Shown here: piece after piece, positions 1,257 through 57,939 of the stretch | Layout: each line of letters begins with the position of its first letter | Numbering within the stretch: position 1 is the first letter of the stretch | Virus record (IMG/VR): IMGVR_UViG_3300028840_008153 | Location: 99,143 to 163,142 of that record | Length of the DNA stretch: 64,000 nucleotides | Reading direction: 5' to 3' (one strand) | DNA from: a virus | Lineage: Duplodnaviria; Heunggongvirae; Uroviricota; Caudoviricetes | Made by a program: the position numbers and the translations under genes | Notes under the pieces: model-generated | The model's input: only the letters and a program-made list of their open reading frames with translations | What the model was told of the DNA's origin: nothing | The model's database searches: none

Positions 1257-4055
1257 TCAGTTAACGTCCTCCCCGACGCCCACCCACTGAGCCACTGCGC
1301 CCCAGTTGATGCTTGTGGCCGCCTCGCCCGTTACACGGACTTCGAGGTTGTTCCCGTTTTCACTGACTTCCAGCTGCCAGTTCTGCTCATCACCACCCGA
1401 AGACGAGGAGGAGCTTCCGCACGTCTCCATGGTGGGCACTTCGCACGCGCCCACGACCACGCTGTCCGAGCCGTCACGATAGGCCGTGATTTCCCGGGTG
1501 AATCCGCGCCGATGGACGCCCCCGTCCTCATTTCCAATGACCATCAGTCGCATGTGGACGGCCGAACCCGCCGTGATGGGAATGCTCATCAGCAGCGTCT
1601 CGGTCGCGTCGGTCGTCTTCGCGTTGCCCGTCATGCGGTGATAGCCGCGTTCGGCCGTGTACGTGCCGCCCGCGCCATCCTGGAAGGCCAGACTGTTGTG
1701 GGCCAGTTCGCCGTCCTTGGCCGCCGTGGTGCGCCGCCCCATGGCGATGGCCGCAAGGCCACTGGCCGTGTTGTTGTCGCCGCCGACCACCGTGCCATAC
1801 GCGCCACTGACCGTGTTGGACACGCCGCCCAGCACGGAGCCGCCCGCCGCCGTGATCGAGACGTTCTTGCCCAGCCCGGAGGCATTCGTGCCGGCCGTCG
1901 AGACGTAGCCGATGCGCGCCACGATCACCGCGTTGAGACCGTAGTTCTTGATCTGGCTGCCGAACGACTGCGAGTTGATGCCGTTGTCGATACGCACTCC
2001 GGTGCTGATAATCGCGCCCGTCGTGTCGTTGATCGTGCCCGTGCGGTTGACGATCGTTCCCATGGCCACTGAGCTGACGGCGTGCCCCGTGTTGGAGTAG
2101 GCCGTGTAACAGTAGTAGCCCACAGCAACGGAGTTGGTCGCGTTCGCCTGCGACCAGAGGCCGTCGGCAAAGTTGTAGTCGGACGTGTAGACGCCGCCCT
2201 GGCCCCGCCCCGCGTAGCACGCGAAGCCCGTGGCCACGTTGCGCGAGCTTCCGTTGTTGGTCTTGCAGTAGTAGCCCATGGCGACCCCCCACGTGTAGGA
2301 GTCGTTGTACATGCCCATGGCCACCGACTTCGTGTAGCCGTCACCCGTGTAATTGTAGTTGCCGATCGCACAGGAGTCGTTGGCGAAAGCGTCGTTCCCA
2401 CGACCGACGGCCGAGTTGTAGCCGCCTTTACATTCGTTCTGCCGCCCGAAGGCCACGCCGCTGTATTCGACCGTGTTGTAGGAGCCAACGGCCACGCCGT
2501 GTCGCGCCGTGGACCCGTAGGTCTTGATGTAGTTGCCCACACCAAACGCCGCGCTCCACGGGTTGTAAGACCTGTTCTTGAACCCAACAGCGATCATGCG
2601 GTCGCCGTTGTAATTGATCGTGTTCTCAGCGCCGAACGCCAGACAGTAGTCGCCACCGTAGATCTTGTTGCGGCGCCCGACAGCCACGCAACCCCAACTG
2701 GTCGGGCTCTCCAGGCCGTTGATGTAGTTGTCCACGCCTATCGCAGAGGAGTTCGTGCAATAGCCGTAGATTTTGTTGGAGATGCCGAAGGCGGCATTGC
2801 GACCCGAGTCGGAGTCTCCCCGCTTGGCCGTCACGTAGTTCCAGTTGCCAAAAGCGAGATTACGCTCACCGGTGCTGGTGGTGTTTACGTAACCGACGGA
2901 GCCACAATAGTTTTCGTAGGCGTAGCAGAAAGACCCGAAAGTGAATGCCCCGGTGTCGTACGCCTTGCCGTAACGGCCGACCGTGATTGATTTACCGCCT
3001 GTGGCGTTGTTTCCGTTGCCGGCGGCAAAATCGTACCCGGTCGCAGAATTGGCCGTGTTGCCGTAACCAAAGGCGCTTGAGTAGTTGCCTCCCGCCCCGC
3101 CAGCCTGGTTGTTGACGCCAAACGTGCTGGAGCCGCCGCCCTTGGAACGGTTGCCACGATTTGCAAAGCCGGGCCCGAAGCCCGTACCCACAGCCACCGA
3201 CGAATAACCTGAAGCCTCGCTCTGCCCGCCCATCGCCACGGCGTACGTGCCGGAGGCAACCTGGTCGGCGTACTGGATGCGCGCCTGGATATCCAACGCA
3301 TAGGTGCCGCGCGCATCGCCGGGAATCTGTGTCTCGGTCGGGAAGTCGTACCCGCCGGAAGAGGACGATGACGAGGAAGAGAGCGGCAGCGGTGACGCGG
3401 GTCGGGCCAGCAGTGCGTTCACGCCGGTGCGGCGAAGCAGCAGGTTGGTGGGATTGACGGCAAGCGGCTTGTTGGTGCCGTCAAGGATCGTGCCCTGCTC
3501 TGTCTGCTCGGTATCGGCCAGAACCACGGTGCCAAGCTGCGAAAGCGTGGCAGGCGTGTCCGACCCGCCGGGACCGGTCGCTCCGGTTGTGCCGGTAACG
3601 CCCGTAACGCCTGTGACCCCAGCGCCTCCTGCCGATCCTGTTACTCCGGTAACGCCTGTCACGCCCTGAGAGCCGGCTGGCCCTGTTGCTCCGGTGACGC
3701 CGTTGGGCCCTATGGGTCCATTGGCTCCGGTGACACCTGTTACACCAAGGGAGCCCGCTGAGCCTGTCGCCCCGGTGACACCCGTCACGCCAAGGGAACC
3801 AGCTGGCCCCGTCGCTCCGGTAACGCCGTCCGTGCCTGCTGGGCCTGTCGCGCCCGTCACGCCGTCTGTTCCGGCAGAGCCCGTAACACCAGTAACGCCC
3901 GTAGCTCCCGTGACGCCCGTAACACCCGTGACGCCAAGCCCTCCCGCCGTAACGTCGACCTTGCGCGCGGCGTCGCTATTGTCAACTGGCGCGGGCAGCC
4001 CCTTCAAACGGTTGCCCTGCATGTCGATCGGGTTGAACATCGGCGTGTCGGCCAT
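1257..4055 (-). CDS. Tail fibre-like protein with a collagen-like (G-X-Y) domain and YadA/Hep_Hag-like head repeats
   Basis: 932 aa. N-terminus [35 protein letters not shown] resembles phage tail-fibre N-termini. It has a roughly 120-residue run of [10 protein letters not shown]... collagen triplets and a poly-Ser linker. The C-terminal about 600 aa is full of recurring NxVAxG/SVAMG/AFG motifs like trimeric-autotransporter head repeats. Confidence 0.65.
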
Positions 4056-4956: not shown

Positions 4957-5904
4957 TCAGTCTTCCATGGGCAGCGGATACGTTTCCCCGTCCTCGGCTA
5001 TCTCCGCCGGCCCTGTTGGCCCGGGCTCGTGCGTAGGCCGGGGCGGAGCGTTGTCGGGCGCGCCGGCCTTGCCGGGTATCGGACTCAGGAAAGGCTCATC
5101 CGCCCTGCGGCCCTCGGCCTGCGGACGCTGAGTGTAGCCTAAGGAAGCCAATCTGTCACGCGTCAGCTTCACCACTTCCTTCAGCGGCTTCGACAGATTC
5201 CCCGGCGTCTTCAGCGTCTCCAGAAAGTAGTGGGTCAGGGCTCCGCACGGGCGCCCGTTCACGTACGTGTCCGCGCTTGTCTGGTTGCTTTTGCAGCCAC
5301 TTACGAACCCCACCTCTAATCGCCCACACACGACCGCCCGGGGAGCGGGAGCTATGGATCGACTCAGACATGTGCGCTTCCTCCACTCGATGTCCACGGG
5401 CGTCGGGTACATCCTGGGGATCATGTCAGGCGCGTTGGGTACGGGCATGGCTCGGGTCAGATCGCCTGAGTGGCAGGAGTCGTTGACCCACGAGAAGAAG
5501 CAGCCCTTCGGGATGCGGCCGAACATGCGCACGAAGTCCTTGTCCGTGAGCATGTGGTTGAGGTCCCACTGAAAGTCAACGGGACACACGGCTTCGAGCA
5601 TTCCGTCGATCTCGTGGGCGTAGTCACGTGTTGGATACTGCACGCCATGGCCGGAGAAGTGGAAGAACACGCGAGCGCCCTTCCTCACCTTGACCAGCCA
5701 GTCGATGCGCTCCTTGATGGCCTGCGTGGTAGCTCGTTCGTCCACGAGCAGACGGATGTTCTCGGGGCTGAACCCGAAGACCTCCACCAGGGCCTCAGCC
5801 ATGTCGGAGACGTCGTTGACGCAGCCGGCCAGCGGAGCACCGGGGTAGCGATTGATCCCTACGAGGAGGGCTTTTTCTTCTCGTCTGAGTCCTTTGTCGC
5901 ACAT
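4957..5904 (-). CDS. Caspase-like peptidase (C14 family; metacaspase/orthocaspase-like)
   Basis: ALLVGINRYPGAPLAGCVNDV...FFHFSGHG (catalytic His) ... WVNDSCHSG (catalytic Cys): canonical caspase His-Cys dyad context. Confidence 0.65.
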   Translation of the reverse strand: MCDKGLRREEKALLVGINRYPGAPLAGCVNDVSDMAEALVEVFGFSPENIRLLVDERATTQAIKERIDWLVKVRKGARVFFHFSGHGVQYPTRDYAHEIDGMLEAVCPVDFQWDLNHMLTDKDFVRMFGRIPKGCFFSWVNDSCHSGDLTRAMPVPNAPDMIPRMYPTPVDIEWRKRTCLSRSIAPAPRAVVCGRLEVGFVSGCKSNQTSADTYVNGRPCGALTHYFLETLKTPGNLSKPLKEVVKLTRDRLASLGYTQRPQAEGRRADEPFLSPIPGKAGAPDNAPPRPTHEPGPTGPAEIAEDGETYPLPMED

Positions 5905-8900
5905 GACAGTTTTCTCCGTAGTGCTCGTTTCCTAAGAATAGCACCTGACTTGGCCAACGGGTAGTCATGATGCAGCGAGATGAAAGCCGGGTTGCGGTAT
6001 GCGCCGCTGGGGAACTTCTCCATGGCGGAGATGCGTGCCAGGCGCCCCTTCCAGTCCTCAGCCTCGTCCATCATCTGCCTGCGGGTGGCGTCGTCGAAGC
6101 CACCGCCCACCTTGCCCACGATCGGGCCCGTTGGGCTGAGACTGTAGTCAAAGCCGCCAGCGGCACCCTCGTACTTGCCCTTACCTGGGAAGACGTTCTG
6201 AATCCAGACATCATGCTCGGGCCGTGGCTTGACCTTGATCGCGCGTCCGGGCCTGGCAGCGGGCCACGCCACGACGCCCTCGTAGGTTGCGGGGTGTTCG
6301 CCGGACACGATGCGCTCATAGAGGGCCTTCTGCTCTTCAGGCGTCCGTGCGGTCTCAGGCAGCCGGAACTGACGATCCGGCAGGTGCTTCATCAGCTCCT
6401 GCAGCTTCTGCATGCGCTCCTCGCCGGTCAGCGTGCCGGGCTCAATCGGCGTCTTGCCCCAGCGCACCACGTCGAAGAGCATGTTCCTCATCTGGACATT
6501 CTGTGCCTTCTGCTTCTCCAGCGAGTTGGATAGCGCTGCGTTGAGTATGCCGCCCAGCTCCTGTACCGGTACTGCCTTGCCTTCACGTTCCCCGTACACC
6601 TCGCCACGGACGATCGTCCCTTGTAACTCCTTGGGAATATCGACCTTCGCCCCGCCAGGACCGAAGATCTTGTAGGTATAAAGGATCGGCCGTCCCGTCT
6701 TGGAGATTCGGTAGGAGAGGGCTTCGATTCGATCACCCAAGAGATGATACAGCGCGCTGGCGCCATCCACTTTCTCCTGAATCATGTAGTTGGGGTCAAA
6801 CAGCTTCTCCACCTTGTCGGCGGGCACCACGCCATACTTCAGCTTCTTGATGCCCACCTCTTCAGGCTTTCCCTTGAGCAGCTTGGCCGCGCTCACCGGC
6901 GTGGTGTTGATCATCAGCCACGCGCCGCCCTGCTGCTTGCGCTGACGGGCGCCTGCCGCGCTCGGCGGCCCGGACATGCGCACCATCGTGTAGAACTCAG
7001 GGAAGCGTTTGTGCGTGACCACGAACTGGATCTTGTCGCGTTCGGCCTTGGTCACGATGACCGAGCCGTAATCATGCTTCTTGACCGTGCCCTTGCCGTA
7101 GCCTTCCTCGATGTTGCCCTCGAACTCAGCGTACTGCCCACGATGAAGCGGCTGCTGGTAGAGCATGATCTTCTTACCAGGCTCGGGCAGCTCCTTGCGT
7201 GTGGCCCACGAGTAGAGCGAAGGCTCTCCGCCTTCCCTGCCCAACCTGACGTCGTAGTGGGGGCCGGCCTTCTGCGCCAGATGACGCTGCACGACCCATT
7301 TGAGGACCTCGCCGTGAGGGATCTGCCTGGGATCGCCAAAGCGTTTGGGATCGGGCAGGCCCGGAGCATAGTCCGCTTCGCCCTTCTTCAGTAGCTTGTA
7401 ACCTCCATAACTGGCAACAGGAACGCCAACCGCAGCCAGTGCGGTGAGCAGCTTGTTGCGCCGTATGGCGCCCAAGAGCCCCTGCTGCTTCTTCCAGTGG
7501 CCGTGCAACAACCTCTCGGCAAGCTCGGTATTCTCGGGTGTTAGGCCGTGCCCCGCGCGTTCGGCGAACTCTCGCAGACTCGCCACGCTCTTGCGCGCAA
7601 ACTCTGGATCACCCTCGGGCACATCAAAAAGCGCCAAAAGCGGCGCTATTCGGCCGGCCACGTCTTTCTGGCTGGAAGGGATCTGCAGCCCAACCTGTTT
7701 CCCCTTGGAGAAAAGCTCTGTGCCAAGGGGCACGTCCGTCAGCTTGCTCTTCTTCCAGTTGGCAAGATCCATGTCGGCGACTGCCTCGCCATATATCTGA
7801 CCGCGCGGGTCATTTCCACGGAAGAACTCCTTACCCATCTGGTAGAAGTCAGGCTCGACGTTTGTGAGATGCTGCGCCTTGAAGTAAGGCAGAGCCGCTT
7901 TCTTCTCGATTGTTGGTAATCCTGTGATCTTCTCAGCCAATTCCCATAGGAAATCCTGAGACTTTGGTAATTCCGTGTCATCCCATAGCAGCTCTGCGGC
8001 CTTTCTTATCTCCAGACCACGATTGGCCTCTTCGCTCGACTCCTTGAGCACTTCGAGGAACTGCGTGATGAGCTGCTGTTTGGTCTCGGAGAGGTTGGAC
8101 ATGTACTGGTCGGCGCCCGTGTCCTTCTCCACCATGCCCCAGCGTTGCATTAAGCCCCGCTTGGGGTTGGAGAAGTAGCGTCTGACCTTCACAACACGCT
8201 CTTCTTCAGGCAGGTGAGCGTGGCTTCCGTGCCGGACCGCTCGCCCTGTCATCTGATCGAGCCTGGACTGGTTCCAGTGCGGCTCCATAAGCTGCATGAG
8301 CTTGGTGCCTTTGAGGTCCAAACCCTCCGAGCCGGCGCCTGATACCAGTAAGATCTTCACATTGCCGGAGTTGTAATCCTCCACGATCTCACGGCGCTCG
8401 CTGTCCTTCAATCCGCCCGTGAACACGTGATGTGGAACGCCCTTCTTCTCCAACGCCTCGGCCAGCGGTAAGATACCGGATTGCAGGTAGTTGGAGTACA
8501 CCACGGCCTTGAAGTTGGGATCGCTCTCCAGCCCCTTGTAAAGGTCGCCCAGCATGCGCCTTAGCTTGGGAGAGTGCGCAACCGCCGAGCCCTTCATCGT
8601 CTCGTCGAAGGGCATGGGATTGTTGGACAGCTGGCGCACGGCCGAGAGGAATGCGTTGAGCTGGGCGGACTCGGCTTTGCTGGGTGGCAGGTTCTTCTTC
8701 ACCTTGTAGGCCAGCCCGACGTCCTCATTGAGGAACGCCTCATACATCGCCGTCTGCTCAGGCGTCATCTCGACTTCGATGTCTTCCTCTTCGACACGTG
8801 GGAAGTCGCCTTCGAGCGGATGGTAGTCAACACGGCCCTTGACGAGCCGTTTCAGCTCCTGCTGGTTCCTAAGGCGCTCCACCATTCCGGGCTTAACGCC

Positions 8901-9497
8901 GTGCCAAGTCTTCTGCCACCACGTGGGCCTTACCTCTACATTCTCCACGAACTTGTCACGGAAGGATTTATGAGATCCAGGCGGGTTTCGCCCCTGTGCC
9001 AGCACCTTGAGCATGGGCACGAACTCACTGGGATCGTTGCGCACGGGCGTGCCGGTGAGGAACATGACCTTGCCGTGGGCCTTTGTCGGGAGCTTGCTGA
9101 CTTTCGTGCCTGGCCGACCCATCCGATGTGCCTCATCGAAGACGGTTAGACCGGCCTGTGGCAAACCTTTGCTCACAGCCTTGTTATAAGACCGCACATC
9201 GTAGTCTGGTGCGCCCTCTGGCTGGTCGGTGAACTTCGACAGCTCCTTGCGGTAGTTCTCACGAAGCGCAGCAGGCACCACAACTGCTTTGGGGCCCTCG
9301 GTTTGCTCGCCTGCGGCGATGCTGGAGAGCGTCTTGCCCGATCCCAAGGCGTGATAGGCCAGAAGTGCAGGCTGTTGCTCCATCTTGGCAACAACACGCT
9401 CCTGCTGAGGCTGCATTTCCACCTCAGGCTTCAATGCGGCCTTCTTGGCTCTCTGCTTGGCGATCTTGATCAGGCCCATTTCGGAACCCATTCCCAA
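5859..9497 (-). CDS. SNF2-family helicase fused to a LigD-like 3'-phosphoesterase plus ATP-dependent ligase (nucleotidyltransferase) domain
   Basis: 1212 aa. N-terminus: GSGKT (motif I), DEAHR (II), LTGTPVRND (III), QMTGRAVRHGSH (VI). Middle: HYDVRLGREGGEPSLYSWATRKELP (LigD phosphoesterase HYDLR...SWAVPKG signature). C-terminus: KVDG (ligase motif I), YEGVVAW (IV), AIKVKPRP (V). Confidence 0.7.
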   Translation of the reverse strand: MGMGSEMGLIKIAKQRAKKAALKPEVEMQPQQERVVAKMEQQPALLAYHALGSGKTLSSIAAGEQTEGPKAVVVPAALRENYRKELSKFTDQPEGAPDYDVRSYNKAVSKGLPQAGLTVFDEAHRMGRPGTKVSKLPTKAHGKVMFLTGTPVRNDPSEFVPMLKVLAQGRNPPGSHKSFRDKFVENVEVRPTWWQKTWHGVKPGMVERLRNQQELKRLVKGRVDYHPLEGDFPRVEEEDIEVEMTPEQTAMYEAFLNEDVGLAYKVKKNLPPSKAESAQLNAFLSAVRQLSNNPMPFDETMKGSAVAHSPKLRRMLGDLYKGLESDPNFKAVVYSNYLQSGILPLAEALEKKGVPHHVFTGGLKDSERREIVEDYNSGNVKILLVSGAGSEGLDLKGTKLMQLMEPHWNQSRLDQMTGRAVRHGSHAHLPEEERVVKVRRYFSNPKRGLMQRWGMVEKDTGADQYMSNLSETKQQLITQFLEVLKESSEEANRGLEIRKAAELLWDDTELPKSQDFLWELAEKITGLPTIEKKAALPYFKAQHLTNVEPDFYQMGKEFFRGNDPRGQIYGEAVADMDLANWKKSKLTDVPLGTELFSKGKQVGLQIPSSQKDVAGRIAPLLALFDVPEGDPEFARKSVASLREFAERAGHGLTPENTELAERLLHGHWKKQQGLLGAIRRNKLLTALAAVGVPVASYGGYKLLKKGEADYAPGLPDPKRFGDPRQIPHGEVLKWVVQRHLAQKAGPHYDVRLGREGGEPSLYSWATRKELPEPGKKIMLYQQPLHRGQYAEFEGNIEEGYGKGTVKKHDYGSVIVTKAERDKIQFVVTHKRFPEFYTMVRMSGPPSAAGARQRKQQGGAWLMINTTPVSAAKLLKGKPEEVGIKKLKYGVVPADKVEKLFDPNYMIQEKVDGASALYHLLGDRIEALSYRISKTGRPILYTYKIFGPGGAKVDIPKELQGTIVRGEVYGEREGKAVPVQELGGILNAALSNSLEKQKAQNVQMRNMLFDVVRWGKTPIEPGTLTGEERMQKLQELMKHLPDRQFRLPETARTPEEQKALYERIVSGEHPATYEGVVAWPAARPGRAIKVKPRPEHDVWIQNVFPGKGKYEGAAGGFDYSLSPTGPIVGKVGGGFDDATRRQMMDEAEDWKGRLARISAMEKFPSGAYRNPAFISLHHDYPLAKSGAILRKRALRRKLSCATKDSDEKKKPSS

Positions 9498-22908: not shown

Positions 22909-23601
22909 TCACGCCACGCCTGGGTTCTCTCGGGCACCGCGCAATCGCTCCAATAGATAATGAGTGAGCAAACAGTCGACCGCCGCGTCGTGCGCGGCGT
23001 CCTTGTCGATGCCCGAAAGCTCCTTGAGCTTGTACTGGGCGTAGCAGTAACGGTCCAACGACCAGTAGACGCCCCTGGCCCTGACATTGCTGACCCACTT
23101 GCCGAAGCTGCGAAGCGTGTCATTGAGACGGAAGGTCATGCCCAACTGGATGGCTTTGACCAGCATCCCGGTATCGAGGATCTCGTTCTCCCCGAACTTG
23201 AAGGGGCGCTCGGCTCGACCGCACTCCCGCTCGAACAGCGGAGCGTCGAAGGCCATCATGTTGTGGCCCACGAACATGGCGCCGGCCTTCTGCCAATCCT
23301 CGAACAGCTCCACGATCCTGTGGACGATCTCCTTGAACGGCACGCCCTCGGCCATGGTCTTCTTCACGTCGATGCCATGGACCTTGAAGGCACCCTCGGG
23401 GATGTTCAGATCAGGACCGTGATTGACGAGGAAGCTGTAGCTCTTCAGGACCTTGCGGCCCTCCACGTGACAGAACCCGTACTGCAGGATGCGGCTTGAG
23501 CCGATCTGGGTTCCATTCGTCTCCGTGTCGAACACCATGTAGGTGTCAGGGAGCTTGGCCCTAGGGCAGCGCTTCGCCATTTCCGTCAGCAGTCGGTCCA
23601 T
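22909..23601 (-). CDS. DEDDh 3'-5' exonuclease (DnaQ/epsilon-like)
   Basis: MVFDTETNG (Exo I), HNMMAFDAPLF (Exo II), HDAAVDC (Exo III); real start MDRLLTEM. Confidence 0.7.
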   Translation of the reverse strand: MDRLLTEMAKRCPRAKLPDTYMVFDTETNGTQIGSSRILQYGFCHVEGRKVLKSYSFLVNHGPDLNIPEGAFKVHGIDVKKTMAEGVPFKEIVHRIVELFEDWQKAGAMFVGHNMMAFDAPLFERECGRAERPFKFGENEILDTGMLVKAIQLGMTFRLNDTLRSFGKWVSNVRARGVYWSLDRYCYAQYKLKELSGIDKDAAHDAAVDCLLTHYLLERLRGARENPGVA

Positions 23602-23611
23602 GACCAGCCTC

Positions 23612-24031
23612 TCAGTCTCGCTTGGTGAAAAACTTCTCGATCTCGTCGAGGTCGTATGTGGGCAAATCAACATCAGTCCGGGTCTTTGGCCTCGCGTCCG
23701 CCGCCCACGACCACAGCTGCCCCAGCAGCGTGGTGGTGAGCGCTTCACAGATCAGAAGCGACGCCGGCTTGTGGGTGGTCACCCAATCCCGAATCGCCGC
23801 CCTGCTCAGTTCCTTATTGGGGTGGTTCCCGTCCAGAATCGCCGTGGTGAGTTGACCCAGCGCGCCTGCAGCCTCAATCAGCTGCTCACGCTTGACGTGC
23901 TGGTCTCCTTCGAACTCGTCGAAAGATTCCAGCGCGACCTTGATGGCGCGCGGCAGCGCATACACCAGGTCCCGTTCGGGCGCGTAGAAGCGCCGATCGT
24001 GCCCGTCCCGTTGGCGAATCTGGATCGTCAT
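23612..24031 (-). CDS. Hypothetical protein (about 139 aa)
   Basis: Trimmed to MTIQIRQRD...; ATGA overlap with the upstream gene. Confidence 0.4.
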   Translation of the reverse strand: MTIQIRQRDGHDRRFYAPERDLVYALPRAIKVALESFDEFEGDQHVKREQLIEAAGALGQLTTAILDGNHPNKELSRAAIRDWVTTHKPASLLICEALTTTLLGQLWSWAADARPKTRTDVDLPTYDLDEIEKFFTKRD

Positions 24032-33816: not shown

Positions 33817-34023
33817 CTACGTAGTGAAAAACAGCTCTCCCGGCGCGTAGAATTTGTTTGAGACCTTGCGGTCCACCAGGCCAAACTGGTATCGGGGATC
33901 ATCCAGCAGCTTCAGGTAGTGCTTCACGTCATAACGCTCTCTGTCTGTCAGCGTCGAAGGTTCTTCCAGCAGTTTCCTCAAACCCTTTTTGAAGAGTTCC
34001 CGGTAGGCTCCTGGGATCGGCAT
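33817..34023 (-). CDS. Hypothetical protein (68 aa)
   Basis: ORF. Confidence 0.3.
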   Translation of the reverse strand: MPIPGAYRELFKKGLRKLLEEPSTLTDRERYDVKHYLKLLDDPRYQFGLVDRKVSNKFYAPGELFFTT

Positions 34024-34327
34024 TCTGTAGCTCCCTTATCTGAGATTCCGAGTGCCTGCGGACCGCCGAGCGCACCATGGAGGTGGGCACCATGAACTTG
34101 CGTGCCAGCCAGCGAATGACTTCGTGCGCGTGACGATTCGTCAAAAACAGCTCCCGGCGGCTAATTGGGAGCTTTCCGTCTCGCCCGTCGGGCCCGGTCA
34201 GAAACAGCTCGTCGAAGTAATCGCAAAGCTCGTGATACTCCCGAGCCATCATCTCCAGCCGTCGCACCTCCTCATCCGGCACGCAGGGCGCGTTGAGGTA
34301 CATCGCGTAGAAGTCATCGTCGGTCAT
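33929..34327 (-). CDS. Hypothetical protein (about 132 aa)
   Basis: Trimmed to MTDDDFYAMYLNAPCVPDEEV. Confidence 0.35.
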   Translation of the reverse strand: MTDDDFYAMYLNAPCVPDEEVRRLEMMAREYHELCDYFDELFLTGPDGRDGKLPISRRELFLTNRHAHEVIRWLARKFMVPTSMVRSAVRRHSESQIRELQNADPRSLPGTLQKGFEETAGRTFDADRQRAL

Positions 34328-34488
34328 GACTCCTCCTCCATGTACTGCTTGAGCCACTGGCGGTAAGACTGCACGCCGTACACGAGAAGCGCCACGAAAG
34401 CGAGCGGGACGCCAACCATCCACTCCAAAAAACCGTCCGGGTCGAAAAGCCAGAACAGAAGCAGAAACACTCCCGCAAGAATCAGCAT
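34324..34488 (-). CDS. Small membrane protein (54 aa), paralogue of 38608..38727
   Basis: MLILAGVFLLLFWLF...LLVYGVQSYRQWLKQYMEEES; its C-terminus aligns with LIHYGIKWYKRWLDKYIEE of the 39-aa protein beyond array 2. Confidence 0.4.
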   Translation of the reverse strand: MLILAGVFLLLFWLFDPDGFLEWMVGVPLAFVALLVYGVQSYRQWLKQYMEEES

Positions 34489-34591
34489 CGTAGCCTCTCT
34501 CCCATAGCTAACGAAAAACGAAGCACTGCCCGGCACCGAAGTGCCGGGCAGCGCGCCCAAGTTCACAAGTAAGGACGCCGCCTTCTGGCAA

Positions 34592-35210
34592 GGCCCACCC
34601 GCAAGCGCGTGGAGGCACCGTCCGTATCCGATCGATCTCAGAATCGATCACCGGCTCACCCGCAAGCGCGTGGAGGGGCCCTCGGGATCGCTGCGATGCA
34701 GCGGCCCACCCGCAAGCGCGTAGAGGTACCTACTCGGCCATGGCTGACGCGAATTCCTCTGAGGGCCCACCCGCAAGCGCGTGGAGGTACCTTGAGGGGG
34801 GGGCTGTCCTCACGGCCATCACGTACGACCCACCCGCAAGCGCGTGGAGGTACCCTGGTGCTGAAGTGGGTCGGAACTCCCACCCGCAAGCGCGTGGAGG
34901 TACCCTGGTGCTGAAGTGGGTCGGAACTCGGGACACGGGCCCACCCGCAAGCGCGTGGAGGTACCGGGCTATATTTTTTTTCAGACGGTGAAGTAGCACG
35001 GCCCACCCGCAAGCGCGTGGAGGTACCCAGATGTCTCCCCACTCGTAAGTGTGAGGCTCCGGCCCACCCGCAAGCGCGTGGAGGTACCGCTCTCAGTCCA
35101 GATCAGCCCACTATTCTTGGGGGCCCACCCGCAAGCGCGTGGAGGTACCACTTCTGTGGCGCCGGTTTTGGCTTTTGGGATGGGCCCACCCGCAAGCGCG
35201 TGGAGGTACC
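34592..35210. CRISPR. CRISPR-like array 1: 11 repeats of 28 nt (GGCCCACCCGCAAGCGCGTGGAGGTACC), spacers mostly 33 nt
   Basis: Repeat starts read directly at 34592, 34653, 34703, 34764, 34826, 34876, 34937, 35000, 35061, 35122 and 35183. The two leftmost repeats are degenerate, so the trailer is at the low-coordinate end. The repeat can fold as CCAC-CCGC-AAGC-GCG-TGG. Spacers are unique except spacer 5, a 22-nt prefix copy of spacer 6. Confidence 0.8.
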
Positions 35211-35320
35211 TCTATGACAAAATGACATGGTTTGGGTGGTCAGCTCATGGAGCTTGGTGATTACTGGAGCAGTCCCTCCAGCCTGGCGCTCACCCCGGGC
35301 GCGAAGCCATGCCATTGGTA
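35211..35320. other. Leader-like flank shared by both arrays (copy 1)
   Basis: About 85 nt, GGTCAGCTCATGGAGCTTGGTGATTACTGGAGCAGTCCCTCCAGCCTGGCGCTCACCCCGGGCGC, is nearly identical at 38463..38540. It contains the hairpin CTGGAG-cagtcc-CTCCAG. Confidence 0.5.
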
Positions 35321-35321
35321 A

Positions 35322-36044
35322 TCAACTGAACTTCTTGATGATCTTCGCCAGCTCTTTCACGCTGGTGCGAACCACCTGACGCATGTTGTGTCCTACACAC
35401 TCCGCCAGAAGATACCTTGCATCGTTCGGGTCCTCCAGGACGTTGATGATGCGAAGATACTTCGGCTGCCGCGTCTTGGGACGCCGCTCATGGGGAGGGA
35501 TCTCTCCCCGTTCGGGACGGTCATAGTCGAAGATCACCTTGGCCTCTTCGGCTGTGACCTTGCTGAAGTTCTTCTCGACGGCCGTGTTCTTCTTGATCAC
35601 GACTGTCGTGGCGTCGGCATTGATGCGCTTCTGCGTTTCTTCGGGCAGCCTCAGGAAAAGATCCGTGGTCACCCATTCCTTCTCGAACGCGACCTTGCTC
35701 ATCACGCCCGCGCCGTACGCGTGGATCTTGGTGAAAAGGCCGTACGAAATGCCAGAACCAGCAACCACTTCGTTGTAGAACTCCTCCACCTGGTGGTCGG
35801 CGAGCTGGCCGATCTTCTTCTTGTGTTTCAGAAGCACCTTGCGCATGCCGGCTTTGTAGGCGACCTTGAGCTTCTCGATCTCCTTGCCGACAGCCTCGCA
35901 CAGCTTCTCAAACTCAGCCTCAGGAAGACCGGAGCCCCCCAGTCCCGGAGGAATTCGTCGAGGGGGCTTGCATGCTGGACTAATCCGTGCCATCCGTTGC
36001 CTCCTTTTTCCTTTTTCCGTAGCTGCTGACAGAGTCCACGACAT
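35322..36044 (-). CDS. Uncharacterised protein (240 aa, or 223 aa from the alternative start at 35993) encoded between the two arrays
   Basis: The alternative start MARISPACKPP (ATG 35993) has an AAGGAGG RBS at 7 nt spacing and overlaps the 575-aa gene's stop by 14 nt. No recognisable family; a Gly-rich segment VVAGSGISYGLFTKIHAYGAG. Confidence 0.5.
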   Translation of the reverse strand: MSWTLSAATEKGKRRQRMARISPACKPPRRIPPGLGGSGLPEAEFEKLCEAVGKEIEKLKVAYKAGMRKVLLKHKKKIGQLADHQVEEFYNEVVAGSGISYGLFTKIHAYGAGVMSKVAFEKEWVTTDLFLRLPEETQKRINADATTVVIKKNTAVEKNFSKVTAEEAKVIFDYDRPERGEIPPHERRPKTRQPKYLRIINVLEDPNDARYLLAECVGHNMRQVVRTSVKELAKIIKKFS

Positions 36045-37707
36045 CCGTGGAAATCTCCTTCATCAGATCCTGCAGCTTGACCAAACGCTGCTCTTCCCCT
36101 TCGGCAACCTCCTTCCGTTTGAGCTTGATCTGGGCCTCCTCTTCTTCCTCCGACAGGTTTCGGGCCTTGATTTCATCGACGGCGTCGGCCGTCTTTTTCT
36201 TCTTTTCCTCCTTCCACGTGCAGGGCCCGCTGTACGCGATGTAGAATTTCCGGCAGCGCTGGTGCAAGGCTTCATCAAAGAAGGCCCACTGGAAAGGCTC
36301 GATGCCTTCCAGTCGCTCCTCAGGCGTGTTTGGCCCGGGAAGCGCGAACAGGCTGAGGTTGCCGCAGGCCCAAGGCTTCAGCCTTCTTACGATGTTCCGC
36401 GCCAAAATCCTGATTTCCTGCTCCACCACCTTCGCCCTGCGGACGGATAGGTCCTGCAACTGCGCTCGCCATTTGGTTGCTGCCCGGCTGCGTCCATCGA
36501 CGGACTGTATGAGGTCCTTCAGCTTGTTCTTTCTCTGCCGAAGGTCCTTCAACCGGCGAACCGTGTTGTTCAGCGGAATGTGGTACATGCGCCACTTGTC
36601 CGCCTTTTCCTTGGCGCGCGTCTTCTTCTCGACAGCGACGTGCACGAGGAAGTCCAGCCCCTCATACTTGTTCTCGCCGGGAACCTCCTTGATGTACACG
36701 TACGCGCTGCGCTTGTGCTTCTGGGCCTGCCGTTGAACGGGGGGCCGAACGTAGGACACGTCCAAGAAGAGCCGGTCTTTTCGATCCAGCCGCAAGCAGG
36801 CGCACTGGTACTCCCAAGCAAGTTGCTCGACGACCTTGACCTTGCCGGTCTTCTTGTTCTTCTGCAGCTTCGGAGCCGGCTGCGGCATGAAGTGGTTGAA
36901 CACGCTGGCGGAGACGTCATCCAGCTTTTTCACCTCCGTCTTCGTCTTCCCGTTCTGCCCCATTTCAAACGGTCCTTTTGTGAGCAACCGAATGGGCGTG
37001 TCCGTGTGTGGCTCGATATTGAGTGAGAACCCCCACTTCTCCAGAATGCCGTCTTCATCGTCCTCCTCACGCTCCTTGAAGGGAACGAACTCCCGCCGGG
37101 TCTCATAACCCATGATCTTCAGCGTCGAGTGCTCCATCAAAGGAAGCGCCCTTTCCATGGAGACATGAAGAATGTCCCTGGAAATGCCCCTGCGCGGGTC
37201 CTTCGTCGTGAGCGCCGCCTTCACGTCTGAGCGCATGCAGTCCCAAACGGAAGCCTTGAAGCGGAAGGGATGATGCTTGTCGTGAGCGAATTCCTCCATC
37301 ATGGCCGCCCACTCGCCGTGAAGGCCGTAGTAGGTCACGTTGGGGTTGAAGTCCGTCCCCCGCGTCACGAGCGCCAGGAACTGCTCGATCCGCTCCCTGT
37401 CAAGCTCCGCGCGAATGTCACCGTCCTTCGTGAAGTGAAGTCTGCCCCCTAAACGAAGGCAGGCACCCCCGATGTCCACGAGCCGCTGGAGCATGAAACG
37501 GTAAGCCTGCAACATCCTGATGACCCGTTGTCTCTCCTCGAAGGTCTCGCAAACGACCCTGAAGGAGTGGCAGCACTGAAGCCAATCTTCCTGGCCGGGT
37601 TTGTTCAACGCGCCCGGCTTCCGGCCGTCGCCTCGAACCCCGCGCTTCCCTTTTTTCTTGGTCTTCTTCTTGGTTTTCTCTGCGGCCTTTTTCAGTAGCA
37701 CGGCCAT
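35980..37707 (-). CDS. Uncharacterised 575-aa basic protein between the arrays; candidate nucleic-acid-binding effector
   Basis: Real ATG at 37707 (MAVLLKKAAEKTKKKTKKKGKRG...) with AAAGGAGG RBS; the track ORF starts at GTG 37734. Lys-rich N-terminus, scattered Cys clusters (QCAC, WACGN, CRK...GPC), and a C-terminal TADAVDEIKARNL that weakly resembles a RuvC-III (DADxNAAxNI) motif. Confidence 0.6.
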   Translation of the reverse strand: MAVLLKKAAEKTKKKTKKKGKRGVRGDGRKPGALNKPGQEDWLQCCHSFRVVCETFEERQRVIRMLQAYRFMLQRLVDIGGACLRLGGRLHFTKDGDIRAELDRERIEQFLALVTRGTDFNPNVTYYGLHGEWAAMMEEFAHDKHHPFRFKASVWDCMRSDVKAALTTKDPRRGISRDILHVSMERALPLMEHSTLKIMGYETRREFVPFKEREEDDEDGILEKWGFSLNIEPHTDTPIRLLTKGPFEMGQNGKTKTEVKKLDDVSASVFNHFMPQPAPKLQKNKKTGKVKVVEQLAWEYQCACLRLDRKDRLFLDVSYVRPPVQRQAQKHKRSAYVYIKEVPGENKYEGLDFLVHVAVEKKTRAKEKADKWRMYHIPLNNTVRRLKDLRQRKNKLKDLIQSVDGRSRAATKWRAQLQDLSVRRAKVVEQEIRILARNIVRRLKPWACGNLSLFALPGPNTPEERLEGIEPFQWAFFDEALHQRCRKFYIAYSGPCTWKEEKKKKTADAVDEIKARNLSEEEEEAQIKLKRKEVAEGEEQRLVKLQDLMKEISTDVVDSVSSYGKRKKEATDGTD

Positions 37708-37818
37708 GTGGCCTCCTTTCAAAGCGCCTCCCACGGGAGGCTCAGGTCATGGACCCTGACGATTGCCGGAGCTTCCGGCATAACGCTCGCCCTAAGCGCA
37801 AACACGAATGACGAGATC

Positions 37819-38462
37819 GGCCCATCCCCACACGTATGGGGCAGCCTCAAAATCAAAGCGGTAAACTGCCGTCCCCATCGGCCCACCCCCAACTGAAAAA
37901 GGAGAACGGAACGGGTCCATCCCTACGCGTATGGGGCAGCCGCCAGCAACATCCTGCGCCACAGCCCTTGACTCGGCCCATCCCTACGCGTATGAGGCAG
38001 CCGCATGGAAATGCGTGGGCAAGTTGACGGATGAGGGCCCATCCCCACTGACACCATCTCAGACGCGCTGCGGCCCATCCCCATGCGCGTGGGGCAGTCG
38101 CGCAACTGCCGAACTGCTGAATCTACGTAGCGGGCCCATCCCGCGTGTATGGGGAAGCCTGGGACCGCGCTGAAGACCCGGCTACCGGGCGGGCCCATCC
38201 CCACGCGTACGGGGCAGCCCCCCCCTCGGGCAGTATCCGTGCTCCTCGGTCCACGGCCCATCCCCGCGCGTATGGGGCAGCCAACGAGGTACTGCTGGGG
38301 CAGGTGCAGGCCCTGGGCCCATCTCCACGCGTATAGGGCAGCGGCACAGACAATGGGAGGATAGCCATGAAAGAGGGCCCATCCCCACGCGTATGGGCAG
38401 CCCGGACATACTCGCAGACCGCAGGATGCACGCCGGGCCCATAAGCCAATATGACACAGGTG
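37819..38462. CRISPR. CRISPR-like array 2: about 10 degenerate repeats of 28 nt (GGCCCATCCCCACGCGTATGGGGCAGCC), spacers 32-36 nt
   Basis: Repeat starts at 37819, 37914, 37975, 38072, 38133, 38192, 38255, 38316 and 38375. Heavily mutated units sit at 37880 and 38036, with a truncated remnant at 38435. Repeat hairpin is CCCCA-cgcgta-TGGGG. It shares the 5' GGCCCAYCC with the array-1 repeat. The array looks decaying, with 1-3 mismatches per repeat. Confidence 0.7.
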
Positions 38463-38540
38463 GGGATGGTCAGCTCATGGAGCTTGGTGATTACTGGAGC
38501 AGTCCCTCCAGCCTGGCGCTCACCCCGGGCGCAAAACCGT
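38463..38540. other. Leader-like flank shared by both arrays (copy 2)
   Basis: Near-identical to 35228..35315. Confidence 0.5.
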
Positions 38541-38607
38541 GTCATAGAAATTGGCTGTACTTTATTTTAACGCAAACGCGCGGAGAAATTAGGGGGCGCC
38601 GGTAGGG

Positions 38608-38727
38608 TTATTCCTCTATGTACTTGTCGAGCCAGCGCTTGTACCACTTGATGCCGTAGTGGATGAGGGCAACAAGCCCGATTCCTGAGAGCAACACCAG
38701 CGTGGCCATGCCTGCAACGGTAATCAT
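38608..38727 (-). CDS. Small membrane protein (39 aa), paralogue of 34324..34488
   Basis: MITVAGMATLVLLSGIGLVALIHYGIKWYKRWLDKYIEE; AGGAGG RBS 5 nt upstream. Not in the track (under 60 aa). Confidence 0.45.
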   Translation of the reverse strand: MITVAGMATLVLLSGIGLVALIHYGIKWYKRWLDKYIEE

Positions 38728-38736
38728 CGCATCCTC

Positions 38737-38958
38737 CTAGCCTACGGCCTCCTGAAACGCCTCCATCACCTCCGGGCGCAAGCACCAGAAGTGAACACGA
38801 ATCCACGGCCCCTTCTTGCTGCCCGCATAGAAGTAGCGGGGAAAGGGGTACTCATCGTTGGCAGGCGCCCTCCAATACCATGTCGTCATCCCGTTCTTGG
38901 TGCGAACGAGGATGGCATCGTTCTCCCGCCACACAGTTACGCTCAAGCCGTCGTTCAT
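38737..38958 (-). CDS. Hypothetical protein (about 73 aa)
   Basis: Trimmed to MNDGLSVTVWRENDAILVRTKNGMTTWYWR...; the upstream part of the track ORF is low-complexity. Confidence 0.4.
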   Translation of the reverse strand: MNDGLSVTVWRENDAILVRTKNGMTTWYWRAPANDEYPFPRYFYAGSKKGPWIRVHFWCLRPEVMEAFQEAVG

Positions 38959-39031
38959 TTGATCGCTCTCAAAAGAAAGGGGAGCCCGAGGGCTCCCCAA
39001 TCTTACCGGTGCTGGCCTTTCCACCCTACTC

Positions 39032-57475: not shown

Positions 57476-57939
57476 GGAGGCCCTCGGAAAGTTTGATCGT
57501 CAAAGAGTGGAGAGAAACGTGGTTTCTTCATTCATGGAGAAGATGTATTCCCTCCGGGCATACGATCAATACGCTGGCCGTCAAAAGGTAAGGAGAAACG
57601 GTTTCTTTTCCGAAAAAAGATGTATTCCCCTTGGGCATACGGCAATGTTGGTGAGCCGGCAAAAGATTGCTGAGACACATTTTGTCGGATGTAGTCCCGT
57701 AGCGGCATCCGGCTCGATCTCAAAGCGGGCCATCAAAAGACAGAGAGACTATTTTTACCGCTCCCGGAGCCTCCCGTCTAATGGGAGGAGGTGGAGTCGA
57801 ACCACCCGGTTCTTTTTATCAGAAAGATGTAATCCCTCCAGGCATATGGCCCTTTTTCAGGTTTGGTGGCCGGCAAAAGAACGCTGAGACGGGACATTTT
57901 GCAGATGTAGTCCCAGCAGGCATCCGGCCGATTTCAGTT
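57476..57939 (-). ncRNA. Repeat-rich non-coding region next to rsr; candidate Y-RNA-like (YrlA-type) RNA gene(s)
   Basis: No credible ORF. Five copies of an about 27-nt motif. Two 62-nt imperfect-palindrome hairpin elements (57651..57717 and 57866..57930). A tRNA-like T-arm plus acceptor fragment (GGTGG-TTCGACT-CCACC, 57745..57815). Immediately downstream of a Ro60 gene and a tRNA. Confidence 0.35.

Follow-up and report, generated by a model that had tools for sequence, protein, structure and literature searches.

Among described systems, the locus reported here comes closest to type V-F, in which the compact single effector Cas12f is encoded beside short CRISPR arrays, and to proteins that use the TnpB/Cas12 scaffold for binding and not for cleavage, often on mobile elements, such as Cas12m (type V-M) and TldR (PMC11656645, PMC10705468). 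In a further group, the natural dCas12f proteins, a C-terminal truncation has cost part of RuvC but not the Cas12f fold (Hoffmann et al., Nature 2026, PMC13472631). A 'distinct cluster' of these is CRISPR-associated; putative structured guide RNAs lie upstream of its arrays, and a repressor role has been proposed for it (PMC13472631). Here we describe array 1, a CRISPR array at positions 34592-35210 of a 64,000-nucleotide (nt) stretch (the window) of the virus record IMGVR_UViG_3300028840_008153. We consider it likely that array 1, the downstream one of two, belongs to a compact locus that is adaptation-less, derived from type V-F and carried by a tailed phage of about 198 kb, in which CRISPR RNAs (crRNAs) guide a dead effector. 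The identity as a tailed phage is indicated by PHROG matches to tail fibre, portal and a helicase-ligase fusion, and the contigs that bear the effector gene measure 198,298 and 198,524 bp.

The effector gene (35980-37707, minus strand) lies between array 1 and a second array, array 2, about 0.8 kb from the former. It encodes a Cas12f/TnpB-fold protein of 575 amino acids (aa), with an ATG at 37707 and an AAGGAGG ribosome-binding site. Neither this gene nor the adjacent 223-aa gene has a Pfam or PADLOC match. A word-indexed search with the effector returned the protein itself and a single homologue at 46% identity, and among 1.84 billion cluster representatives an exhaustive HMMER search with the two-sequence profile recovered remote relatives, about 20 in number and 450-660 aa long. 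Against the PDB, the family profile matches SpCas12f1 (9i8y, E=2.7e-15), several AsCas12f structures (~1e-12) and the natural dCas12f (9n9c, E=1.7e-8); kinship to the latter is visible only at the profile level, and 9n9c is also among the top fold matches. An AlphaFold2 model on the family alignment has a mean pLDDT (predicted local distance difference test) of 81. Its best Foldseek matches are AsCas12f (8j12, E=5.6e-11), SpCas12f1 and dCas12f 9n9c, all with probability 1.00, followed by TnpB, Cas12g, Cas12m (8hio, E=7e-7) and Cas-lambda.

Size (within 400-700 aa) and fold of the protein are those of type V-F, whereas the RuvC D-E-D triad is not intact and a C-terminal zinc ribbon (TNB) is missing. 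At RuvC-I, the position of 'GVDLG' is occupied by 'YVYIK'; at RuvC-II, the Cas12f segment 'CGTIQIENLEG' aligns with 'CGtIkVyglPsg' of the family and with 'CGNLSLFALPG' of the effector described here. Both the RuvC-I Asp and the RuvC-II Glu are therefore replaced, and across the family the RuvC-I and RuvC-II columns hold no conserved acidic residue. RuvC-III is absent, as the family stops shortly after the 'YKA..GI' strand. The same holds for the zinc ribbon: members end 10-40 aa past this strand or continue as a charged helix, and PF07282 gives weak matches only (best E=9.5e-4) in 9 of 21 members, the 575-aa effector not being among them. Invariant or near-invariant are only W155, G245, F150, D156, P171, C448, G449 and P457, none of which is a catalytic position. 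Judged by alignment, the 575-aa protein is apparently Cas12f-derived and unable to cut DNA by RuvC.

Array 1 belongs with the Cas12f-fold protein, as homologous repeats accompany homologous genes in five related loci. Three of these (L032, L033 and L037) have arrays of period 61 immediately upstream of the effector gene, and in L037 a second array begins after a 243-aa partner gene. Locus L036 (effector P0009) has two arrays (1871-2244 and 3031-3355), one downstream of the effector gene and one after a 216-aa gene; the first unit of its second array has a spacer of just 15 nt. In gene sense, the related repeats mostly follow the pattern GG(T/C)..CCCAC-N6-GTGGG-(A/T)TG..GG and are always co-oriented with the gene; L032 fits this pattern less well. 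The partner gene of the phage described here (35322-35993, minus strand, 223 aa) overlaps the effector gene at the latter's 3' end. It is found in synteny in L001, L032, L033, L037 and one further JGI contig, and is alignable in L001, L032 and L033. Its product has no match in Pfam, PADLOC, PHROG or PDB and no homologues beyond its own cluster, and a single-sequence AlphaFold2 model (pLDDT 39) is unusable. Array 2 (~37819-38441, minus strand) is decayed. Its consensus in crRNA sense is GGCTGCCCCATACGCGTGGGGATGGGCC, a related repeat also being given as GGCCCATCCCCACGCGTATGGGGCAGCC. No two of its repeat copies are identical: one retains just 13 nt (38036), two lack 1 nt each, and the remnant of a repeat is left in a gap of 67 nt. 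At 38435-38441, a repeat end of 7 nt (ATGGGCC in minus sense) is found exactly 32-33 nt before the first full repeat of array 2.

Both arrays are flanked on their high-coordinate side by a copy of the same leader element on the minus strand. Copy 1 (35221-35316) starts 6 nt past the stop codon of the partner gene and has its 66-nt core at 35237-35302; copy 2 spans 38444-38556, with the core at 38467-38532. The core, GCGCCCGGGGTGAGCGCCAGGCTGGAGGGACTGCTCCAGTAATCACCAAGCTCCATGAGCTGACCA in minus sense, is 100% identical between the copies, and was kept so while its flanks and the repeat consensuses of the two arrays diverged (by eye, at about one third of 28 positions). Both copies fold alike into two internal hairpins and a 10-bp closing stem, formed by 35307-35316 with 35221-35230 in copy 1 and by 38537-38546 with 38450-38459 in copy 2. 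Between the copies, the closing stem shows two compensatory changes, A-U to U-A and U-A to C-G; it also contains two G.U pairs in minus-strand RNA that would be C.A mismatches in RNA of the plus strand. A comparable arrangement is present in L036, where an element of about 115 nt is duplicated ahead of each array and forms a hairpin with one compensatory pair and gene-sense G.U pairs (by eye). Logan contigs of this phage break exactly within the 66-nt leader core. Just past the low-coordinate end of array 1 is an intrinsic terminator on the minus strand (34523-34554), consisting of a 14-bp stem with 11 G-C pairs followed by TTCGTTTTTC. At the other side, a strong minus-strand terminator of the upstream gene (38979-38998) sets the 5' boundary of the proposed operon. 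Since these two minus-strand terminators, at 34554-34523 and 38998-38979, bracket the locus, it can be read as one operon. An AT-rich promoter-like motif, GCGTTAAAATAAAGT, is located at 38559-38573 on the minus strand, and a similar motif, GCGTTA-N2-AT-N-A, is found by eye upstream of the arrays in L032 and L033.

The leader element is also a candidate for a tracr-like (trans-activating CRISPR RNA-like) or scaffold RNA, with moderate support from sequence complementarity. In four arrays, stretches with perfect complementarity to the cognate repeat are located 25-45 nt ahead of the first repeat. Array 2 has a stretch of 10 bp (CCATCCCCAC, 38460-38469) that pairs with repeat positions 16-25 (p=0.002 per locus), L032 one of 9 bp with positions 14-22 (p=0.012 per locus), and L033 one of 10 bp with positions 18-27 (p=0.01 per locus). 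The array of primary interest is the weak case and speaks against such a role, as the stretch of array 1 comprises 6 bp (CCACCC, repeat positions 20-25) and is not significant alone; it differs from the stretch of array 2 just as the two repeats differ. When anti-repeats were sought over 33-40 kb by duplex energy, the values were uniform (near -36 kcal/mol) and uninformative; the exact-complement search was more useful. In Rfam, nothing matches the locus, even at E<=1.

The comparison with type V-F Cas12f (AsCas12f 8j12, SpCas12f1 9i8y, Un1Cas12f1 7c7l) is thus one of best profile and fold matches, of a compact single effector beside short arrays, and of a structured RNA with a repeat-complementary stretch upstream of an array, possibly comparable to a tracrRNA. 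The phage locus differs in its effector, which has the RuvC-I Asp and RuvC-II Glu replaced and stops before the zinc ribbon and RuvC-III; in its overlapping partner of about 220 aa; in its location on a phage; and in that no cas1, cas2 or cas4 was found here. With dCas12f (Hoffmann et al., Nature 2026, PMC13472631) the effector shares the C-terminal truncation that removes part of RuvC from a retained Cas12f fold. The dCas12f-sigmaE systems nevertheless differ in several respects: no rpoE or helix-turn-helix neighbour is seen here but a 223-aa partner, the effector has 575 aa instead of 365 aa, the setting is a phage instead of Bacteroidota chromosomes, and two multi-spacer arrays take the place of a single chimeric guide RNA. 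The cluster of CRISPR-associated dCas12f proteins (Hoffmann et al. 2026, Extended Data Fig. 1) is alike in having a truncated, dead Cas12f beside arrays with a structured RNA upstream, a likeness at the level of description. Cas12m gives the weaker fold match noted above, and its RuvC-like domain is inactivated rather than deleted (PMC11656645). TldR proteins use omega-RNA-like guides and have no arrays.

Array 1 itself consists of 11 repeats of 28 nt and 10 spacers. The repeat reads GGCCCACCCGCAAGCGCGTGGAGGTACC on the plus strand and GGTACCTCCACGCGCTTGCGGGTGGGCC in crRNA sense. Its 26-nt core, CCCACCCGCAAGCGCGTGGAGGTACC, has 11 matches at up to 3 mismatches in the 64-kb window, all within 34594-35210, and 0 in 100 shuffles, in agreement with the copy number and extent given by an earlier, sequence-only reading of the DNA. 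The 28-mers start at 34592, 34653, 34703, 34764, 34827, 34877, 34938, 35000, 35061, 35122 and 35183, and the spacer lengths from low to high coordinates are 33, 22, 33, 35, 22, 33, 34, 33, 33 and 33 nt. With repeats of 28 nt and spacers of 33-35 nt except two of 22 nt, the array has the generic form of a CRISPR array, for which at least three near-identical direct repeats of 23-47 nt, separated at regular distances by unique spacers of about equal length, are expected. The 26-nt core is identical in 8 of the 11 repeats. At the trailer end (34592-34730, minus strand), which comprises three degenerate repeats, spacer 1 and the 22-nt spacer 2, the copies carry the one to three substitutions that had been noticed before: copy 1 (34592-34619) has one (T25C), copy 2 (34653-34680) three (C4T, T25G, A26G), and copy 3 (34703-34730) one (G20A). 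This amounts to 5 substitutions in 84 nt versus 1 in 224 nt for the other eight copies (Fisher p=0.0065; p=0.037 if the two changes of a junction repeat described below are added). Apart from that two-base change, the sole real substitution among the eight higher copies is in repeat 5, which opens with GAC. The sequence-only reading was silent on this substitution and on the 35-nt spacer 4 and the 34-nt spacer 7; spacer 2 was found at the coordinates and length it had given (34681-34702, 22 nt). Spacer 2 is best read as the product of an old 11-nt deletion. The idea that it is an old partial copy of spacer 3 was dropped, as the local alignment score of 11 is noise (null median 10), and local alignment detects no kinship to neighbouring spacers. 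The 7-mer CTCGGGA opens spacer 2 (34681-34687) and recurs at 34927-34933, where it opens the 11 nt of spacer 6 that are absent from its truncated copy; this is probably a coincidence, though both short units are exactly 50 nt.

The truncated copy is part of an exact tandem duplication of 50 bp in two copies at 34829-34928 (Tandem Repeats Finder score 202, 100% match; a second repeat finder agrees). Copy 1 (34829-34878) comprises 26 nt of repeat 5 and 24 nt of spacer, and copy 2 (34879-34928) is the extra one. As a consequence of this composition, the repeat between spacers 5 and 6, i.e. the chimeric junction repeat at 34877-34904 (minus strand), opens on the plus strand with CTC, the next three bases of spacer 6, instead of GGC; in crRNA sense it ends with GGGAG where GGGCC is usual. 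The CTC opening had been pointed out before, as had the fact that spacer 5 is an exact prefix of spacer 6. The latter stands, though the coordinates then given (34854-34875 and 34904-34936) were one base low: spacer 5 is at 34855-34876 (minus strand) and spacer 6 at 34905-34937. In crRNA sense, spacer 5 has kept the 22 repeat-distal nt of spacer 6 and lost the 11 repeat-proximal nt, and together with its GGGAG repeat it probably makes a defective guide. Microhomology at the junction amounts to 1 nt. The novel junctions are GGAACT joined to CCCACCC, i.e. GGTCGGAACT followed by CCCACCCGC, and the CTC repeat running into CTGGTGC, i.e. CTGGTGCTGAAG. It is generally known of CRISPR arrays that repeat-spacer units are duplicated internally, with the duplicated spacer beside its parent. 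The present case agrees in that position and in having its mutated repeats leader-distal, but differs in that an off-register segment of 50 nt and not the whole 61-nt unit is duplicated, in the 1-nt microhomology, and in the apparent absence of an acquisition machinery.

Two other assemblies of the phage lack the extra copy. The ENA contig ERZ27256798 (L002/L030; 198,298 bp) is 100% identical to the window over 21.7 kb but holds a single 50-bp unit and hence 10 repeats, and a Logan contig (L031, SRR6963591) is identical through five trailer-side repeats, after which the GAC repeat leads straight into the full spacer. The former suggestion of slippage or recombination for the spacer 5/6 pair is thus upheld, the pair stemming from an exact tandem duplication that is missing from two otherwise identical assemblies. 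As its two copies are without differences and the flanks are identical, the duplication is very recent, and we regard it with good confidence as a real, strain-specific variant; its structure is consistent with replication slippage. An artefact of assembly is less likely. Such an artefact could arise, for instance, if two alleles, one full and the other lacking 11 bp (CGGGACACGGG), were mixed and threaded through a collapsed repeat. The two assemblies without the duplication fit this explanation, as does the 50-nt unit that an 11-bp-deleted allele would yield, since the older short unit 2 is also exactly 50 nt. Further, the contigs of this phage in Logan end at the arrays and at the duplicated element, indicating that the region is hard to assemble, and the duplication itself was read from assembled contigs. 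We still consider the artefact unlikely, because the junction k-mers (GGAACTCCCACCC) must be present in the reads, because the duplication spans 100 nt, less than the k=141 suggested by 'k141_' in the names of sister ENA contigs (taken here to be the MEGAHIT k-mer size; the assembler of the window may be another), and because similar footprints occur elsewhere in this family of arrays. Spacers 3 and 5 of L036 are related (score 24 versus a null maximum of 17; ~83% identity over 24 nt), and units 3 and 4 of L033 have a common variant 5' end of the repeat (by eye), making real duplication plausible. Short units occur in L033 (56 nt), L036 (46 and 43 nt) and array 2 (36 nt).

With respect to spacer content, no gain at either end of array 1 is seen in the assemblies examined. 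Three contigs (L002, L003 and L004) have identical leader-side spacers 9 and 10, L002 and L031 do not differ in their trailer-side units, and the sequence of array 1 does not vary among 4-5 samples. Growth at the low-coordinate end, which would have overturned the orientation proposed from the sequence, was therefore not observed. Neither cas1 nor cas2 is among the Pfam hits recorded for the 38 genes called within 10 kb on either side or among the PADLOC results for ten large open reading frames (ORFs). Given this negative result and a spacer set that does not differ among the assemblies examined, the array appears static and to change only by mutation; its worn far-end repeats and duplicated spacer are ordinary CRISPR wear. 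Besides the duplication, a further difference is found in the JGI contig L003, whose last ~108 nt (7921-8028, corresponding to ~34950-35060 in the window) diverge, the other 7.9 kb being 99.8-100% identical. In this tail, a repeat is diverged, spacer 8 is present as a variant whose match is confined to the 17 repeat-proximal nt (crRNA sense), and a different spacer of 23 nt is found. It could stem from recombination with the array of a diverged relative, from a second haplotype, or from a chimeric contig end.

Searches for targets and hosts were negative. No protospacers were found in the window or in INPHARED, and none in IMG/VR for spacers 7 and 10, the two tested there. The 20-nt core of the array 1 repeat has 22 single matches in GTDB (185,579 species genomes) and one in IMG/VR, none with a second copy. 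All matches being isolated and none an array, no host CRISPR system with the repeat of array 1 is visible; this distinguishes the locus from phage mini-arrays that hijack host CRISPR-Cas. Metagenome scans with the repeat and by effector alignment gave no match in a collection that evidently does not contain these samples, and in IMG/VR neither the leader core nor the effector gave one. One may ask whether array 1 is a functionless relic that drifts toward the state of array 2, its wear being neutral decay and the effector using mainly another guide. Array 2 is clearly decayed, neither an adaptation module nor spacer targets were found, and dCas12f homologues are known that have single chimeric guide RNAs instead of arrays (Hoffmann et al., PMC13472631). 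Against this, the repeat cores and spacer lengths of array 1 are regular, its sequence does not vary among samples, and it possesses a perfectly conserved leader element of its own and a dedicated terminator. We consider a relic improbable, and array 1 as a source of guides for the dead effector the better reading.

The evidence supports that array 1 is read on the minus strand, its leader being at high and its trailer at low coordinates. In CRISPR arrays, mutated repeats gather at the leader-distal end and serve as a marker of orientation, e.g. in CRISPRDirection. The arrays of L032, L033, L036 (both) and L037 have their degenerate repeats downstream-most in gene sense, and all genes neighbouring array 1 are on the minus strand. 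Together with the duplicated leader and the terminators, these observations place the leader at the high-coordinate end, and the sequence-only proposal of an old trailer end at low coordinates with minus-strand transcription is borne out by the leader element, the terminator and the co-oriented related loci. If the polarity is that of type V, as we infer, each spacer follows its own repeat, and 34592-34619 is a terminal repeat without a spacer.

Several observations are at odds with the reading proposed here. A scan of 34000-39000 with the sigma-70 promoter consensus gave no match; in plus sense, 7 nt (AGGTACC) that resemble a crRNA 5' handle of class 1 come after the repeat hairpin; and the tail of L003, the only inter-sample difference other than the duplication, lies on the trailer side of the third repeat and not at the leader end. 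A strand test that counts G.U versus A.C pairs in degenerate repeat hairpins (arrays 1 and 2, L033) was mixed and, register shifts being possible, was discarded. The opposite polarity, i.e. a plus-strand array with its leader at low coordinates whose 7-8-nt 5' handle, (G)AGGTACC, is made through cleavage by a Cas6-like enzyme that the host may provide, could draw on the plus-sense hairpin (positions 4-21) with its 7 following nt, as in type I repeats, and on the L003 difference as the sole one in spacers and toward low coordinates, but is very improbable: the degenerate repeats are at the low end, whereas new repeats copy the leader-proximal one, the plus strand has no conserved flank there but a minus-strand terminator, no class 1 cas gene or Cas6 is seen (Pfam hits on nearby genes; PADLOC on large ORFs), 185,579 species genomes contain no host array with this repeat, and five related loci tie the repeat family to a Cas12f-like gene in one fixed orientation.

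On the minus-strand reading, transcription would start at the promoter-like site (~38560) and proceed through the leader, array 2, the effector gene, the overlapping partner gene, the second leader and array 1 to the terminator at 34554-34523. The transcript would be processed into crRNAs whose 5' handle derives from the repeat and whose 3' part is the spacer, following the type V polarity proposed above. These crRNAs may guide the dead effector to bind DNA without cutting, and binding would most likely repress or otherwise control transcription of genes of the host or of competitors, by analogy with Cas12m, TldR and dCas12f (PMC11656645, PMC10705468, PMC13472631). A role of the partner protein is possible, if unsupported. 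The array would change by mutation only: point substitutions build up in the three promoter-distal repeats, short indels would have given the 22-nt spacer 2, and a non-unit tandem duplication of 50 bp would have resulted in the chimeric repeat and a second spacer copy truncated at its 5' end. A more far-reaching and tentative possibility, which we hold to be rather doubtful, is a self-contained regulator that binds DNA under RNA guidance, composed of the dead Cas12f-like protein, the partner and the tracr-like leader, whose guides evolve by internal duplication and divergence instead of by Cas1-Cas2. The 50-bp duplication, the related spacer pair of L036 and the variant units of L033 would then be snapshots of this process, and guides of about 22 nt would be tolerated, since only the repeat-proximal ~17-20 nt would matter.

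Other features of the window lie outside the locus. A 315-aa ORF (4957-5904, minus strand) matches the caspase model of PADLOC (E=1.6e-21) and adjoins a 1212-aa fusion of a helicase and an ATP-dependent ligase (5859-9497). A 279-aa DEDDh exonuclease (22909-23748, minus strand; PADLOC E=6.6e-20) matches a model listed as CRISPR-associated; located 11 kb from the arrays, it may be an ordinary phage exonuclease. The tail-fibre protein (932 aa, 1257-4055, minus strand) contains collagen-like triplet repeats, which account for tandem repeats of 9, 18, 36 and 45 nt at 3727-3935. At 57540-57926, at least 4 copies (a fifth is possible, by eye) of a partly palindromic motif of about 25 nt, CGTATGCCCGGAGGGAATACATCTT in minus sense, are found in a 580-nt intergenic stretch downstream of a phage tRNA-Met (57940-58016, minus strand).

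We note that the features of array 1 as such are textbook ones and fix the reading direction only; the interest of the locus is that it represents a rare phage-borne, adaptation-less and apparently nuclease-dead Cas12f-like system, from a family whose effector genes are accompanied by a small partner gene and by arrays placed, each of them, behind a conserved structured RNA. The polymorphic duplication of 50 bp provides a dated example of change in an array without adaptation. If the proposed function is true, the effector would be another compact programmable DNA binder, and if it acts as an RNA-guided repressor or recruiter that phages use against hosts or competitors, it would extend the discoveries of dCas12f and TldR to the biology of lytic phages.

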